Below, in pieces: positions 7,301 through 40,732 of a stretch of DNA of 46,408 bases (position 1 is the stretch's first letter; the number at the start of each line of letters is the position of its first letter). The DNA is taken from the IMG/VR virus record IMGVR_UViG_2740892219_000006. The stretch is one strand, 5' to 3'. Both the position numbers and the translations under genes were made by a program. The notes under the pieces are model-generated. The model did not search any database. It saw only the letters and a list, made by a program, of their open reading frames with translations, and was not told the origin of the DNA. The stretch comes from a virus. Taxonomy: Duplodnaviria; Heunggongvirae; Uroviricota; Caudoviricetes.

Positions 7301-7594
7301 TGTGATATCTCCGATTAAAGGAACTATCACCACCAATGACGCCAATCAATATGGTGGTGAGACGTACAGGGTTGGCGTAACCGGCACAATGACAAACCCG
7401 GCGCGGATTTCTCCGCCCCCGCACGCCCCACCATAATTTGGGTGTAGCAGTGCTTTACGCATAAAAAAACCGCTAACGCGGTATGCGCCATTGTGCAATC
7501 GGGACGCCAATCCCGACCGTAGATTTTGCTACGGCTCGGAAAGTGTCCACCAATGGCGCATTCATGTCAATACGGCGGGATTTTAACAGAGACA

Positions 7595-8442: not shown

Positions 8443-8847
8443 GGACGGTTCTTTCGTGCTGATCGGATTCGCGGTCCTTTCAGCATTACGTTGTTGTATA
8501 AACAACCACGCAAGCACAAGCAGCAAGTTGATTTTACCCAAAAGGTAATAATAGTCCACTATTATGCTTCAAAAAATTGTGGTTCTTGTTGTGTCTGCAA
8601 ACTCACAGATTGTGGGTAGGTTACTGATTTTGTGAAAATAAACTGGTTTTTTCGTTTAATTTATTTCCTATTACTAATCTTAAAATAATCGTAAAATACC
8701 TGTGGACCTTCCCGCCGATTCGCACCCGGGCACCGACTTTAGGGGAGGATTTCCTGTTGCCGTACATGCAAGCACAAGCAGCCGTGCTTGCTCTCGCGTT
8801 GTTTTCGTCGGTGGGGATGCCGTGAAACGGCCTGTAAGGGCCATACA

Positions 8848-8970
8848 ATGAAAAAATACTGTATGTGTATTTTTATCGTTGTTACTGGGGCTTTGTTTAC
8901 GCCACATGGGGAGGGTTGGAAGATTACTGATAACGCTCTGAATGTGACGATAAACATTAGCAGCAAGTAG
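8848..8970 (+). CDS. Possible small hydrophobic peptide (40 aa)
   Basis: MKKYCMCIFIVVTGALFT signal-like N-terminus; immediately followed by a strong terminator; weak RBS. Confidence 0.25.
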   Translation: MKKYCMCIFIVVTGALFTPHGEGWKITDNALNVTINISSK

Positions 8971-8975
8971 CGATT

Positions 8976-8998
8976 AGGCCCCTTCGGGGGCCTTTTTT
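8976..8998 (+). terminator. Rho-independent terminator
   Basis: AGGCCCC-TTCG-GGGGCCT followed by TTTTTT. Confidence 0.7.
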
Positions 8999-20148: not shown

Positions 20149-20224
20149 GGCCCCTTAGCTCAGTGGTTAGAGCAGGCGACTCATAATCGCACGGTCATCG
20201 GTTCAAATCCGGTAGGGGCCACCA
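20149..20224 (+). tRNA. tRNA with CAU anticodon (Met or lysidine-dependent Ile2 type), 3-prime CCA encoded
   Basis: Manually folded cloverleaf: 7-bp acceptor GGCCCCT/AGGGGCC, D-stem GCTC/GAGC, anticodon loop CTCATAA, T-stem ATCGG/CCGGT with TTCAAAT loop; the 5-prime half resembles the E. coli Ile2 tRNA from memory. Confidence 0.85.
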
Positions 20225-21123: not shown

Positions 21124-21233
21124 TATATAATTATAGATTTATATAAAAAGTGCTTTGCAGGTGGGAAAAAATTTCCTATAGTGGCAACCAGAAACCGAGC
21201 GATAGTCGCCCTGGTTAAACCGGAGATAACCCG
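21124..21233 (+). promoter_or_regulatory. Conserved promoter/leader/RBS cassette, copy C
   Basis: TTTGCA (21154-21159), 17 bp, TATAGT (21177-21182); the leader differs from copies A/B by clustered substitutions creating AACCAG...CTGGTT complementarity. Confidence 0.55.
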
Positions 21234-21494
21234 ATGAAAAGTAGCGATATGGTAGAAGCTCTCGAAATTAACGCAGCAATCGATACTATGATTACTGACC
21301 GTCAGGCAATTGCTGATCGCCAAAAACACCACGTTGATGTACTACAAGAAACTTGGGATCTTGTGCGCTTGGGGCATCAGTATAAAGATGCTGGGAAGGA
21401 CTGGTATCGCTGGGCGAAAGCTACAGCAATTAGACTGTGGGAAAGCACGCAATCTCGGGCAGAAGAGCTGAAAGATAACGGGGTGAGTCTATGA
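21234..21494 (+). CDS. Hypothetical protein (86 aa)
   Basis: Driven by cassette C; no recognised domain. Confidence 0.45.
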   Translation: MKSSDMVEALEINAAIDTMITDRQAIADRQKHHVDVLQETWDLVRLGHQYKDAGKDWYRWAKATAIRLWESTQSRAEELKDNGVSL

Positions 21495-21688
21495 GCTACA
21501 TTCCATTCTCTCGCGCAACGACAGCACAGCGTATCGAGATCATTGCGAACGACATTGAGCGTCTTAATGAAGATGTTAACCAAATGGTTGATACGGGCGA
21601 TTTAACTCTTTGCAAGCTGTTAAAAGTGCAAGCCATGATGCGTGATCTACAGACCAAAGCAAAAATTGTCTCGATACATGCTGAATAA
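21491..21688 (+). CDS. Hypothetical protein (65 aa)
   Basis: Translationally coupled; followed by a terminator. Confidence 0.4.
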   Translation: MSYIPFSRATTAQRIEIIANDIERLNEDVNQMVDTGDLTLCKLLKVQAMMRDLQTKAKIVSIHAE

Positions 21689-21702
21689 TTCGAATCTCTA
21701 AC

Positions 21703-21729
21703 GCCCCTTTACCCATCGGGGCTTTTTTA
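21703..21729 (+). terminator. Intrinsic terminator
   Basis: GCCCC-loop-GGGGC followed by TTTTTT. Confidence 0.55.
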
Positions 21730-21970
21730 TGTGTTCTGTATGGGGTTGCTGGAGGGCTAACTGATGTAGGTGGAAATATGTTTGATGAATTTGACGGTTT
21801 CTGAGCTTGATGCGTGACGACGGCGTTACTCCGGTCGGGTTCCCATGGCGACGTAGTGAGGGAGAGGAAGCGTAAAGCATCACTGAGTTACGGTTGGCGC
21901 CCGATTTAACGCGTAAGCAGCCTGATAATGAGATGGTACACCGCAACCTATAGCGGTAATTAACAACGAG

Positions 21971-21996
21971 CCTCGGCAATTGCCGGGGCTTTTTTA
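21971..21996 (+). terminator. Intrinsic terminator with no ORF upstream (orphan)
   Basis: CCTCGGC-AATT-GCCGGGG followed by CTTTTTT. Confidence 0.6.
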
Positions 21997-22020
21997 CATC
22001 CAGACAAAGGAGAACATGGG

Positions 22021-22320
22021 ATGCCTTCGACAAGCACCAAAAAAGAAATGGCGATTAGTGATGTGCTTTACGCGCTTTCGATTATGTGTGACGGAGCAAT
22101 GATTAGGATGAAAGTCCTCCATGAAGCATACGGAAAAAGTCACGATGAGGCAGCTAAAGAGTGCCTGAATGAGATTGTGGACTTCATTGATAGCCATCGT
22201 TCAATTATATCGCGTCAACCGACAGCGTCGTCCATCACGATTAGCGCACCGGTTATCAATATATCAGTAACTGCGGCATGTAAATCAGCAGCGGAAGATG
22301 ATCGTGCTTATGCCGAGTGA
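22021..22320 (+). CDS. Hypothetical protein (99 aa)
   Basis: AAGGAGA RBS upstream; no recognised domain. Confidence 0.4.
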   Translation: MPSTSTKKEMAISDVLYALSIMCDGAMIRMKVLHEAYGKSHDEAAKECLNEIVDFIDSHRSIISRQPTASSITISAPVINISVTAACKSAAEDDRAYAE

Positions 22321-22510
22321 TTTGTTCTGGTTTCCGCTTCCAATAAGAGATTTGTTGGTATTTCTGGCTGGCGCTTACGTCTGGAGAAAAGCGAAAGACA
22401 CCTCGTTATCTTTGAGGTTTGTCTTAGCTATATCGGTAGGAACCGCGCTGGGGACGGCTTATCTCTTGACATTACTGGAGATATTCATTGAAGAATGGAT
22501 AGTTTCATGA
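22298..22510 (+). CDS. Small membrane protein (70 aa)
   Basis: Two hydrophobic segments; overlaps neighbouring genes. Confidence 0.35.
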   Translation: MIVLMPSDLFWFPLPIRDLLVFLAGAYVWRKAKDTSLSLRFVLAISVGTALGTAYLLTLLEIFIEEWIVS

Positions 22511-22659
22511 ATGGTGTTGGCATTTTTCTGATGGTTGTGGCCGTGTGTTTTTGTATCTCGCTGGTGGTTATTGCTGGTGTCCTGTGGCGCATCTTAGTGG
22601 CGCAGAGAGCTTTTCGGCTTAAGCGGGAGCAAATGCGCCTTGATTTCTATCGAAAGTAA
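22507..22659 (+). CDS. Small single-pass membrane protein (50 aa)
   Basis: ATGA start/stop overlap with the upstream gene; hydrophobic N-terminus; followed by a terminator. Confidence 0.35.
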   Translation: MNGVGIFLMVVAVCFCISLVVIAGVLWRILVAQRAFRLKREQMRLDFYRK

Positions 22660-22667
22660 CTCTTACA

Positions 22668-22697
22668 GCTTCGCGGTGTCGCGGGGCTTTTTATTTT
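22668..22697 (+). terminator. Intrinsic terminator
   Basis: GCTTCGCG-GTGT-CGCGGGGC followed by TTTTTATTTT. Confidence 0.55.
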
Positions 22698-37785: not shown

Positions 37786-37934
37786 GTTTTGATGAGCAAA
37801 AACCTATTGATAAGCAAATAATGAGGGCCGCGAGTTCTCTATCTCAATCATCTCAATCAACACCTATATCCTACTGGCTTTCTCTTCGGTTGAGGCGAAT
37901 TGTCGCATGGATTGATGTGTTTAATGAGGATTAA
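37504..37934 (+). CDS. Tail assembly chaperone, -1 frameshift extended product
   Basis: Slippery heptamer T TTT TTG at 37770-37776 in the zero frame; the -1 frame stays open to 37934. Confidence 0.6.
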
Positions 37935-37939
37935 TACTA

Positions 37940-40732
37940 ATGGCCAGCAATAAGAACTTTAAGCTGGCTTTTGAAATTGGCGGCAAAGTTGCCGCCTCTC
38001 TCCCCAAAAGTTTTACTACAGCTAATCAGGCTGTTGCTAAATTAAATGCCGAGCTTGCTGGATTAACGAAAGAACATGGGGAAATTCAAAAGCTACAATC
38101 TGTAAAAGTAAAGGTTGGACAGACTGCCCTCGAATATCATAAAGCTGCCGCTCGCGTTGAAGAGTTACAGAAGCAAATAAAAAACACGGCCAATCCAACC
38201 AGAGCGATGCTTCGTGACTTTGAGAAGGCAAAAACACATTCATCGAATTTACGAGCATCACTACGTTCTCAGCGTGAAGAACTGGCCGCTTTAAAGTCTG
38301 CCTATCAGGGAGCTGATACATCTGCCAGAGCTTTGGCTTCAAGAGAGAAAGAACTTAAAGCCAGCATTGATCGTAATCGTGAGGCTCAGGCCCGTAGCGT
38401 TGAGCAGGTTAACCGCTACAGAACGGCTTTGGCTTTAGCCAGAGCAAATGTTCAGCAAGTGAAAAAACAGCAGGAGGAACTTAACCGGGCATTAGAAAAA
38501 CAACGTATTGATAAAATTAACAGCTATAAAAATGCGTTGGCTGAAGCACGGAAAAATGTTCTTGCAGTAAAACGTGCTCAGGAGGAGTTAAACCGCGCGT
38601 TGGAAAGGCAGCGTGAATTGAAGCGAGAGCATCTTGGTGAGGCAAAGAGTCAACTTGTAAGGTCAGGATTACAAACTGGTGCTGTAGCGGCTGGTGCATT
38701 TGCTGCTGCTAACAATGCAGCAAATTTCAATCGTGAAAACAAAATGATTGGTCTTACGGCAGATATGAAGCCGGAAGAAGTTCAGGCGATGGGGCAGGCG
38801 ATGCTTGTTACCGGAACGGCTACCAACCAGTTTGCATCTGATATTCAGGCCGCTCAGGGTTTTCTCGTCGCTGCTGGGCAGGATTATAAAGAGGCTCAGG
38901 CGAATCTACTAACTATTGGGCGAACAGCTACAGCTACTGGCTCTGATATCCTCGATGTCTCGAAAGCATCATTTACATTAAGTGACTCATTGAAGATTGA
39001 TCCATCTCAAATGAAGTCTGCAATGGGGATTCTGGTTCAGGCAGGGAAAGAGGGAAACTTTGAATTTAAAGATATGGCCAAAAATCTTCCTGTGCTTGGT
39101 GCCCAGTTCCAGGCATTAAAAATGGGAGGTAAAGAAGCCGCCGCGACGATGGGGGCTGCTTTGCAGATAGCTCGCAAAGGTGCTGCAACTTCGGATGAGG
39201 CTGCTAATAATATGAACAACTTTTTGGCGAAAATACTTTCCCCTGAAACGCTAAAAAAAGCAAAGAAAAATTTCGGTGTAGATTTATATAAAATTGTCAC
39301 AACAGCGCAGAAAAAAGGGAAGAATCCATTCGAAGCTGCAATGCATTCTGTCATGAAAATGACTAAGAACGGAGATCAGAAGTTACTTGGTGAGCTATTT
39401 GGCGATATGCAGGTTCAGAACTTTGTTCGTCCGATGATTCAAAACTGGAAGGAATACCAGAGAATCAAAGCAACATCTCTTGGTGCTGGAAGTGCTGTTA
39501 TTGACCGCGATTTTGCCAACATAACGAAAGACAATGCGGAGCGATTGAAACAATTACGTATTCAGGCTAGCAATGCATCATTAAGTTTTGGTCAGGCCTT
39601 GCAACCTGCTTTGAATGCCGCGCTTAGTGTTTTGGTTCCGCTGATTACAAAAATTAGTGAATTTGTAGCTAACAACCCCAATTTTGTGTCTCAGATTGTG
39701 ATGGCGGCAGGTGCGTTTCTAACCATGAAAAGTGTGGTTATAGCGTGTAGGGTAGCTATGCTGGCTTTATCTGTAGCGACAAAGCTAACACCCTTCGGGT
39801 GGATTCAGATGGCTATATCTGCGCTGGTTGCCGCAGGAATATTGCTCTATCAGAACTGGGATAAGATCAGAGATTATGCTGTCAGAGTTTGGCCTTCTGT
39901 TAAGGAATATACAGTTAAATCGTTTGAAGCTATAAAAAACTTTATCTTAAACTTTGATCTCAATGGATGGATTATATCTATGTTTGGTAAAGCATGGGAT
40001 TATCTTTCCAACATAAACTGGAGTTCGGCAGGAGTAAGAATTTACAGTACATTAATTAGTGCTTTTAAATGGATGTCTCCGCTTCCGTTCTTAATTAAAG
40101 CATTTAAACTTACAACAAATTACCTTTCTGGTATTAATTGGAGCGAAACAGGAAAGAAAATCATAGATACACTGGTATCTGTTTTTATGCGTTTTTCACC
40201 AGTTGGACTCTTTATAAGAGCATTCCAATCTGTAACGGCTTATTTGTCTGGAATAAACTGGAGTGAGTCAGGCGCAAAAATAATTGAGACGTTAATCACT
40301 GGGATAAAATCAAAAGCAAATGCTTTAATTAATGAAGTGAAAGGCGTTTTTTCTTCTGTACGTGAGTATTTACCGTTCTCTGATGCGAAAAAAGGTCCAT
40401 TCTCACAGCTAACAAAGTCAGGTAGTGCAATAATGACTACTCTGGCATCTGGTGTTAGCAGAAATAACAGCTTACAGAATGCAATCGCAACCCAGTTCGG
40501 GCAATCAAATTTATCACCTCACGGGATCTCTGCTGCCGGGAGTTATGGACCTCGCCAGAACGTTAACGCAGTGACTGGTGGGATAACCTATTCGCCTGTA
40601 ATCAATCTTCCGGCTGGCTCACCAAAGGAAACTGAGGCGGCAGCTAAAAGAGCATTAGATGCGGGATATTCTGATTTTGAGAAGAAATTGAGTGCTCATA
40701 TGTTCCAACAACGGAGATTAAGTTTTGGATGA
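37940..40732 (+). CDS. Tail tape measure protein
   Basis: 930 aa; coiled-coil N-terminus with internal repeats, hydrophobic centre, repeated NWS..G blocks. Confidence 0.85.
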   Translation: MASNKNFKLAFEIGGKVAASLPKSFTTANQAVAKLNAELAGLTKEHGEIQKLQSVKVKVGQTALEYHKAAARVEELQKQIKNTANPTRAMLRDFEKAKTHSSNLRASLRSQREELAALKSAYQGADTSARALASREKELKASIDRNREAQARSVEQVNRYRTALALARANVQQVKKQQEELNRALEKQRIDKINSYKNALAEARKNVLAVKRAQEELNRALERQRELKREHLGEAKSQLVRSGLQTGAVAAGAFAAANNAANFNRENKMIGLTADMKPEEVQAMGQAMLVTGTATNQFASDIQAAQGFLVAAGQDYKEAQANLLTIGRTATATGSDILDVSKASFTLSDSLKIDPSQMKSAMGILVQAGKEGNFEFKDMAKNLPVLGAQFQALKMGGKEAAATMGAALQIARKGAATSDEAANNMNNFLAKILSPETLKKAKKNFGVDLYKIVTTAQKKGKNPFEAAMHSVMKMTKNGDQKLLGELFGDMQVQNFVRPMIQNWKEYQRIKATSLGAGSAVIDRDFANITKDNAERLKQLRIQASNASLSFGQALQPALNAALSVLVPLITKISEFVANNPNFVSQIVMAAGAFLTMKSVVIACRVAMLALSVATKLTPFGWIQMAISALVAAGILLYQNWDKIRDYAVRVWPSVKEYTVKSFEAIKNFILNFDLNGWIISMFGKAWDYLSNINWSSAGVRIYSTLISAFKWMSPLPFLIKAFKLTTNYLSGINWSETGKKIIDTLVSVFMRFSPVGLFIRAFQSVTAYLSGINWSESGAKIIETLITGIKSKANALINEVKGVFSSVREYLPFSDAKKGPFSQLTKSGSAIMTTLASGVSRNNSLQNAIATQFGQSNLSPHGISAAGSYGPRQNVNAVTGGITYSPVINLPAGSPKETEAAAKRALDAGYSDFEKKLSAHMFQQRRLSFG

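Follow-up and report, generated by a model that had tools for sequence, protein, structure and literature searches.

Lambda 6S RNA and the StxS RNA of Stx phages are both made between the late promoter pR′ and the terminator tR′, and transcripts of this interval can act as regulatory small RNAs (sRNAs), as StxS does. It is established that leader open reading frames (ORFs) can gate Rho or attenuators, as tnaC and mgtL do. For the control of transcript elongation by RNA only, there has been essentially one example so far in enterobacterial phages, the put RNAs of HK022-like phages. A put RNA is about 70 nt long and consists of two stems, of which stem I is a pseudoknot with a triplex (PMC9378689).

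Here we describe a second RNA, structurally unrelated to put, that occupies the put slot and is more widespread, being present in pL leaders, late leaders, plasmids and a Grimontviridae phage. One copy lies in a viral DNA of 46,408 nt (the whole stretch that was analysed, called the window). The segment 21733–21996 of the window contains one member of a leader element family that is uncatalogued so far and unannotated in every annotated record examined. The element itself, 21751–21996, is composite and comprises a ribosome-binding site, a start–stop mini-ORF, a pseudoknotted core of about 100 nt and, in this subtype, a hairpin and a strong terminator. Its architecture and its mini-ORF are new, whereas a leader RNA in the antitermination slot is in itself a known kind of position.

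The segment, its terminators and its coding status

The segment is flanked by the ORFs 21491–21688 and 22021–22320. The signals within and around it, other than the core and the mini-ORF, are listed below.

21154–21182, + strand: nearest sigma-70-like promoter match (TTTGCA-17-TATAGT), a consensus match only
21703–21728, + strand: T1, weak terminator-like hairpin (GCCCC, 10-nt loop, GGGGC) followed by T6
21940–21957, + strand: H3, hairpin between the core and T2 (ACCGC, 8-nt loop, GCGGU)
21968–21996, + strand: T2, strong intrinsic terminator, with the stem at 21968–21991 and then a T-run
22667–22695, + strand: T3, second strong intrinsic terminator (−13.8 kcal/mol, z = −4.3)

An earlier note on this DNA, made from the sequence alone, had described the segment as moderately GC-rich, lacking a protein gene and bounded by two intrinsic terminators. 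The strong terminator at its 3′ end is real: T2 has a 10-bp stem with 7 G–C pairs and a folding energy of −18.8 kcal/mol (z = −6.3), and none of 200 shuffled sequences is as stable. T3 follows 700 nt 3′ of T2, and the two are at the top of the + strand list of terminator-like structures between 21 and 40 kb, by stem and by G–C pairs. The upstream terminator survives in part. T1, which starts 15 nt 3′ of the stop codon of ORF 21491–21688, does have a hairpin and a T-run, but with a 5-bp G–C stem it is weak taken alone (−9.6 kcal/mol, z = −1.7; 14 of 200 shuffles fold equally well). The terminator scan misses it because its loop is longer than the limit of the scan. T1 is kept in the closest relatives, where substitutions are confined to the loop, and a counterpart, a hairpin with a T-run 5′ of the Shine–Dalgarno site, is found in late-type and other subfamilies.

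H3 is common to the late-leader relatives in E. coli prophages, in which the homology spans 21813–21996; core, H3 and T2 are a module that the window has in common with lambdoid late leaders. The promoter scan found no sigma-70-like promoter in the interval from T1 to the RNA, and the match at 21154–21182 is a possible source of a transcript that would read through T1.

The GC content is 50.8% for the segment and 59.2% for the core, against 44.5% for the whole window, in agreement with the moderate enrichment noted before. The absence of a protein gene was confirmed as well. The ORFs that overlap the segment (+ strand, 22 and 31 aa; − strand, 28 and 111 aa) are purely mechanical: no open frame is maintained across 33 relatives, indels of 1 and 13 nt are present, the variable columns are distributed evenly among the codon positions, and the largest of these ORFs (111 aa, − strand) is interrupted in the nearest relatives. 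On these grounds we rejected a protein-coding reading for either strand. In three plasmids with the identical segment, the NCBI annotation (PGAP) leaves it without a feature.

A conserved, pseudoknotted core RNA

The core and its helices, a fold supported by covariation, are the following.

21812–21914, + strand: core structured RNA of about 100 nt (covariance model R2, 109.8 bits)
21814–16/21910–12, + strand: helix P1
21818–21/21834–37, + strand: helix P2
21840–44/21860–64, + strand: helix P3, which forms a pseudoknot with P4
21855–59/21880–84, + strand: helix P4
21870–71/21877–78, + strand: helix P4b
21890–93/21901–04, + strand: helix P5

The six helices fit a 33-sequence MAFFT alignment (A2) in which 96.4% of the cells are paired, compared with 35–43% when the partners are slid. 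Eight pairs of this alignment show changes on both sides, and on four of five measures at most 1 of 500 shuffles matches the observed value. A 46-sequence alignment fitted to the model has 97% of its cells paired and 9 covarying pairs; over both alignments, the slid-partner controls give 23–43% paired cells, and on most measures the observed values are not attained by any shuffle. Covariation is found mostly in P4 (four of the five pairs) and in P5. The U–G pairs in P1 and P3 identify the + strand as the strand of the RNA. Many unpaired bases of the core are invariant, and the core carries single-stranded motifs resembling GGA or GGAGG.

Other candidate features of the core were rejected. A put-like helix 1 (GUGAC/GUUAC), taken from a single-sequence fold, is at odds with the variation at columns 4 and 18 of A2, and the extended outer helix ‘P0’ of the single-sequence fold differs in pairing register between close relatives. 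The long stem II proposed by RNAfold gives way to the covarying hairpins P4 and P5. An RfaH ops site (GGCGGTAG..TG) would need a 2-nt insertion, and its bases covary within helix P4.

In Enterobacterales, the core occurs at more than 130 loci of phages, prophages and plasmids. Pattern scans of viral contigs and genomes yielded about 110 core-motif loci with 85 distinct sequences, and a looser pattern gave 25 further loci, divergent subfamilies among them. The core region (about 21813–21931) recurs at 72–94% identity in unrelated settings; the carriers include E. coli lambdoid prophages, a Klebsiella plasmid-borne prophage, Serratia symbiotica plasmids and Serratia phage OS31. A divergent copy in the Salmonella phage SeKF_80 (family Grimontviridae) scores 54.6 bits and appears to retain P1, P2 and P4 through compensatory changes. 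The pattern scan of genome contigs was dominated by chance matches in high-GC genomes; few matches were real by sequence inspection, among them those in Pectobacterium (L067), Serratia (L068) and Buttiauxella (L032).

A second viral-contig pattern also caught metagenomic sequences of the L362 type, which are unrelated, are not recognized by model R2 and were discarded. They contain a near-identical stretch of about 150 nt (..CCACAATACGTCCCCAGTGGTAGAACGAGTACCCTTCCCTGCGTCGCGGCGGGGAAGGGGAAAGG..) that matched the search pattern by chance and is present in at least 11 metagenomic viral contigs (L362, L364, L370, L371, L373–L376, L383, L385 and L400).

At both gathering and permissive thresholds, Rfam 15 has nothing relevant at the segment; the sub-threshold matches are driven by the terminator only (e.g. 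isrJ, 24 bits against a threshold of 37). Neither the core sequence nor put-like families led to an earlier description in full-text literature searches, the work of 2011 on the HK639 antiterminator RNA being outside their scope.

A start–stop mini-ORF 5′ of the core

Between T1 and the core, the following features are found.

21751–21756, + strand: Shine–Dalgarno sequence GGAGGG, followed by a 7-nt spacer
21764–21769, + strand: mini-ORF ATG TAG, which recurs in the family together with the Shine–Dalgarno sequence
21765–21797, + strand: stretch between mini-ORF and core that is invariant among four window-type relatives

The mini-ORF of the window lies 45 nt 5′ of the core. Of 76 distinct upstream regions of the family, 62 have a Shine–Dalgarno sequence followed by ATG, 0–3 codons and a stop codon 28–50 nt 5′ of the core; among shuffles, 2.9% do. 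The exceptions among the 76 mostly have the ORF, with a weaker Shine–Dalgarno sequence or a different spacing. The same pair of signals is also present in the divergent subfamilies, and the variants of the mini-ORF include ATG AAG CAG TAA, ATG AAG TAG, ATG AAA TAG, ATG TAG, ATG TAA and ATG TGA. With only 0–3 codons of variable sequence, the signal can be neither a peptide nor a particular codon. A mini-ORF is lacking in the S. symbiotica plasmid and in SeKF_80, where a real upstream gene has its stop codon about 20–30 nt 5′ of the core. Judged from the sequences, the feature shared by all these loci is a ribosome that would terminate just 5′ of the core.

Elements resembling −35 and −10 promoter boxes 5′ of the core of late-type loci were rejected as promoters, being the Shine–Dalgarno site and the mini-ORF. 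Many start–stop mini-ORFs are followed by extra stop codons, some of them in other frames (e.g. ATGTAGTGAATAA). At the position of the invariant stretch 21765–21797, other subfamilies have one or two small hairpins. Several subfamilies carry an extra conserved leader block 5′ of the Shine–Dalgarno sequence, ..CAGCTTCGGCTATGACGG..GGGAGCCTG(N10-14)CAGGC.., located about 60–150 nt 5′ of the core (L139, L178, L369, L384, L386 and others), and another conserved block, of about 100 nt, is found in the pL leaders of Klebsiella type. Both blocks may be additional structured parts of the leader.

A mini-ORF next to a conserved RNA fold could belong to a sensing leader, similar to an attenuator or a riboswitch, in which the state of the core would be set by a ligand or by ribosome occupancy of the mini-ORF. 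The inputs could be translation capacity, release factors or charged tRNA, and the outputs termination at T2 or by Rho, or translation downstream. Such a leader would be in keeping with the conserved pseudoknotted core and its many invariant unpaired bases, with the stop codon of the mini-ORF abutting small hairpins, and with the 3′ parts, which vary among loci (a terminator in some, a hairpin and a Shine–Dalgarno site in others); tnaC and mgtL are precedents. We nevertheless regard this explanation as unlikely. Inspection of the fold of 21905–21998 revealed no pairing alternative to the T2 stem, and no mutually exclusive pairing of core and T2 was seen. The distance from the stop codon of the mini-ORF to the core ranges from 11 to 50 nt, the few varying codons leave little to sense besides initiation and termination, and there is no match to an Rfam riboswitch.

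The phage-plasmid carrying the window copy

About 90% of the window can be aligned, with an identity of about 98–99%, to pMB9272_3, a circular E. coli plasmid of 48.9 kb. This plasmid belongs to the phage-plasmids: it has repA and parA, its repressor is of XRE type and its tail of myovirus type, and its lytic genes are nearly all co-oriented. Three such plasmids contain the region 21690–22020 at 100% identity and two further ones at about 96%; it is unannotated in all of them. The window copy is placed between the lysis and packaging modules. On one side there are lysis genes, a tRNA, an MT-A70 methyltransferase gene and two small ORFs; on the other side there are small ORFs, ParB-like genes and the genes for terminase, portal and capsid. 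The element directly precedes T2 and T3 amid 19 kb of co-directional lytic genes.

Most sibling plasmids align over 21951–22020 alone, which corresponds to T2 and the start of the next gene. The plasmid of ATCC 25922 passes from the upstream ORF to the next gene within 74 nt, with T2 alone between them. Since the siblings keep only T2, the RNA is accessory in this lineage, and the assignment of the segment to a phage accessory region by the earlier note was therefore correct. The core is present in only 37 of 5426 complete E. coli genomes.

The gene just 3′ of T2 is mosaic (22021–22520): its first 180 nt or so are near-identical to a 151-aa ORF of pMB9272_3, after which the two diverge completely, and the window encodes a 99-aa protein (PHROG 8319) in place of that ORF. 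The abrupt divergence points to a recombination junction close to the element. The mosaic region, together with the sibling plasmids that live without the element, would suit a passenger left by recombination of a lambdoid late leader; a related proposal is a stabilizer, whose structure and ribosome would shield the mRNA from RNase E or Rho. We consider either very improbable, as compensatory changes preserve the fold and the mini-ORF in subfamilies and hosts that are far apart, and the segment is 96–100% identical in the five plasmids.

Other RNAs were observed elsewhere in the window. A C4 antisense RNA (72 bits) lies beside isrK (67 bits) at 7350–7535 on the − strand, and a ryfA-like RNA (143 bits) is found at 8702–8998 on the + strand, all above the Rfam gathering thresholds; together, these matches look like a P1/P7-type immunity (c4/ant-like) module. 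The tRNA between the lysis genes and the MT-A70 methyltransferase gene (20149–20224, + strand) is a tRNA-Met with the anticodon CAT according to ARAGORN. The corresponding tRNA of pMB9272_3 is annotated as tRNA-Ile by NCBI PGAP, which would mean a lysidine-modified CAU tRNA-Ile2.

Genomic contexts of the family

The genomic context was compared for 111 loci. About 57 of them belong to the early-left pL leader, just 3′ of a gene for a cI/LexA-type repressor, and 26 are found between a DUF1133/Phage_antitermQ-like gene (PHROG ‘anti-termination protein Q-like’) and a holin gene. Five loci are phage-plasmids of the window type, and one lies between the gene of a NusG paralogue and a type IV secretion operon. 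In two pL-type loci the element is located about 300 nt 3′ of the pL promoter, and at locus L162 a 10-of-12 promoter match is found about 300 nt 5′ of the core.

Of 90 distinct upstream regions, 40 contain a consensus boxA (GCTCTTTAACAA) located 140–310 nt 5′ of the element, the background being 0.03; the search covered the 450 nt 5′ of each core, and the window copy was unflagged. Neither of the two marks of a nut site, a boxA and an N gene, was found for the window copy, the ORFs downstream of the element having no Pfam match; some relatives have part of this combination. At two loci, the first ORF after the core carries an N/Nun-like arginine-rich motif: GTAKSRHKARRAE in L173 (+182 to +467 from the core) and SRNRRKARRAAQREANQ in L159 (+174 to +426). 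These arginine-rich first ORFs place the element of L173 and L159 in the leader of an N- or Nun-like gene. The motif of L173 resembles that of phage 21 N. In most loci no N-like gene is evident.

Such neighbours raise the question of a protein partner. The RNA could be a loading or recognition site for an antiterminator of N, Q or NusG type, for a Nus factor or for a protein like CsrA or ProQ, and not be the effector. The adjoining Q-like genes (26 loci), NusG paralogue (one locus) and arginine-rich ORFs, the frequent upstream boxA and the GGA/GGAGG-like single-stranded motifs of the core are all in line with this. The neighbouring proteins nevertheless come from unrelated families, one RNA is unlikely to serve three classes of antiterminator, and tblastn with the DUF1133 Q-like protein and with the NusG paralogue detected no homologue in the window, which makes this explanation decidedly improbable. 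A conserved host protein that binds the core is a possible partner.

The regions around the element differ between the types of locus. Late- and window-type loci have a hairpin with a T-run before the Shine–Dalgarno sequence and a strong terminator at about +176. Elsewhere, a simple check for a hairpin plus T-run rarely found a terminator within about 300 nt 3′ of the core, and one pL-type locus has no strong intrinsic terminator after the element. In the examined loci that are neither of late nor of window type an ORF comes next, about 75 nt on in the Serratia and Pectobacterium types.

The earlier note had proposed that the segment, bounded by two terminators, encodes an sRNA, and had named conservation, a promoter and an Rfam match among the points to check. 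Conservation is evident from the many loci described above, no Rfam 15 family reaches its gathering threshold, and one part of the proposal holds: a conserved, structured, non-coding RNA of the + strand ends at a strong terminator, so that a short defined RNA could be made at the segment. The transcripts of a stand-alone sRNA would end at T2, be stable, measure about 190–250 nt and act on targets of the host or the phage in trans; lambda 6S RNA and StxS are the models. In favour of it, T2 is strong, the unit of core, H3 and T2 (21813–21996) recurs in E. coli late leaders 3′ of Q-like genes, and this unit is accessory. An independent, terminator-bounded gene is not, however, the general design of the family. 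The promoter scan shows no promoter-like site between T1 and the RNA. At most of the more than 130 loci, the RNA forms part of an operon's 5′ leader, and with its upstream ribosome-binding site and mini-ORF it has the anatomy of a leader element that acts in cis. Beyond the late- and window-type loci few terminators are found near the core and an ORF follows it, and in the late-type loci a terminator like T1 precedes the element. The conserved positions are structural or internal and do not form an exposed seed, and a linked Shine–Dalgarno sequence and mini-ORF are unexpected for a trans-acting RNA. A stand-alone sRNA acting in trans is possible for the window copy; as an account of the element we give it a small likelihood.

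Relation to put RNAs

We found putL and putR in HK022 and assigned them the residue numbering of the cryo-EM study, and a covariance model (R1) of 22 canonical putL/putR sequences was made with the base pairs described there (PMC9378689). Searched with the filters off, R1 gave nothing at E<=10 in 21812–21914; against 100 loci of the family there was nothing significant (best E = 0.77). The put profiles gave no nhmmer match at the element, and R2, the model of the element family, found nothing in HK022 and HK639. Negative in both directions, these covariance and profile searches indicate that the core is not a put RNA. Membership by architecture was rejected as well: covariation backs P1–P5 with the P3/P4 pseudoknot and not the two stems of put, and P2 reads from the sequence as a simple hairpin with covariation in SeKF_80. 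A put family is missing from Rfam (0 matches in HK022), whose silence on put is therefore uninformative.

Put RNAs promote terminator read-through in cis and independently of factors, and mutations of the β′ zinc-binding domain abolish it. The conserved residues that they need to bind RNA polymerase are the A9–G35 platform, U28, G42–G45 and A63/A64. The core has some short sequences that resemble put, namely GACGA(A)CGGCG and CGGUCGGGU.CCC..GGCG. The match of the latter to putR is above those of all 3000 random segments of the window, the motif having been noticed before it was tested. It is missing in divergent members of the family, and no CAAU partner strand was seen in the core.

The evidence from genomic position is of another kind. 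About 57 of the 111 loci are found where put RNAs are, just 3′ of an early lambdoid promoter, the window copy lying elsewhere. Three prophages (L214, L166 and L227) match HK639 at 89–93% identity in the pL promoter and in the leader up to about nt 45. The HK639 leader then has an RNA annotated in GenBank as ‘putL-like antiterminator RNA’, which is of the canonical put type; the three prophages have instead about 250 nt, with a boxA-like sequence and a mini-ORF, and then the core. Several loci of the family have downstream flanks in common with canonical putL loci. The motif GA[TA]TTAC[CA] lies at a fixed distance 3′ of the core in 28 of 80 distinct downstream regions and is also present 3′ of many putL copies. 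In HK639 (L355), an ‘M3-like RNA’ of the GenBank record (37910–37969, + strand) is found in the right operon, in the interval between a cII-like gene and the gene that follows, which is the position of putR in HK022.

A proposed cis-acting leader RNA

Fold, strand, conservation, linkage to a mini-ORF and position in operon leaders are observed properties of the element. For its function we tentatively prefer a cis-acting leader RNA, which may help RNA polymerase to pass the T2/T3 terminator barrier, although we would not yet call this probable. A long rightward lytic transcript, from a promoter 5′ of T1, would include the element. A ribosome would load and terminate just 5′ of the core while the core folds behind the polymerase, and the folded core would act in cis on the elongating RNA polymerase or on its Nus or Rho partners. 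The polymerase would then pass T2 and T3 and continue into the genes for ParB-like proteins, terminase and morphogenesis. The element would work as a processive antitermination module like put or nut, with the transcripts that stop at T2 as a by-product.

Several lines of evidence suggest such a role in cis: the fold supported by covariation, with G–U pairs specific to the + strand; the loci next to cI, Q-like or NusG-paralogue genes; the boxA in nearly half of the distinct upstream regions; the replacement of the HK639 putL-like RNA by the core cassette in three prophages; the motif GA[TA]TTAC[CA] that follows both the core and many putL copies; and the position directly before T2 and T3 among co-directional lytic genes. 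Other observations count against it, since the window copy has no identified promoter, the covariance and profile searches gave no put match and the put-like motif is gone in divergent members. With regard to the core as the antiterminator, it also counts that sibling phage-plasmids retain T2 without the element and that a strong intrinsic terminator is lacking after the element of one pL-type locus. The co-occurrence with Q-like (26 loci) and N-like proteins (L173 and L159) leaves room for the element not to be an antiterminator itself.

A more specific proposal, which we hold to be doubtful, is that the mini-ORF and the pseudoknotted core constitute an RNA antiterminator or anti-Rho device of a new class, assisted by the ribosome. 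The ribosome released upstream and the folded RNA would together convert the polymerase to a termination-resistant state. Such a device would be interchangeable with putL at pL and could be used in late operons, conjugation operons and phage-plasmids.

If the element acts on RNA polymerase or Rho, it would offer a new handle on how a nascent RNA and the first ribosome reprogramme elongation, and a compact part for the design of synthetic operons. Whatever its role, it represents a well-defined and easily testable new RNA family that is unannotated in the examined records, including those of clinical E. coli plasmids and prophages.

Comparison with known systems

The element can be compared with four kinds of known leader. 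Like the nut sites, it is found in the slot between pL and the first early-left gene, with a consensus boxA 5′ of the element in many pL-type loci and N-like arginine-rich ORFs after some; its core is far larger than the 15-nt boxB hairpin.

The 26 late-type loci resemble the lambdoid pR′–tR′ leaders, the element being likewise located between a Q-like gene and a holin gene and ending at a strong terminator. The span from core to terminator is about 185 nt, similar to the length of lambda 6S RNA; the element is not known to resemble the lambda late leader in sequence. Unlike in the pR′–tR′ leaders, a terminator like T1 and a mini-ORF precede the core, and the same core is also present in pL leaders without a closely following terminator.

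A strong Shine–Dalgarno sequence with a very short ORF in a phage leader recalls the leader mini-ORFs, namely those of tnaC or mgtL type, the lambda bar minigenes and the start–stop ORFs known from ribosome profiling. The mini-ORF of the element differs in having only 0–3 codons of variable sequence and in being coupled to a conserved RNA fold.

The put RNAs and the core are both cis-encoded structured RNAs in the early-operon leaders of enterobacterial lambdoid phages. Both are located shortly after a stop codon, putR lying about 20 nt after cro; both sometimes precede GA[TA]TTAC[CA]. The short motif CGGUCGGGU.CCC..GGCG is shared with put, though not by the divergent members of the family. 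In prophages with a pL region of HK639 type, the core cassette takes the place of the putL-like RNA. The core differs from put in its length of about 100 nt and its fold of P1–P5 with a P3/P4 pseudoknot. Unlike put, it is linked to a Shine–Dalgarno sequence and a mini-ORF, and it is also found in late leaders, in plasmids and in a Grimontviridae phage.
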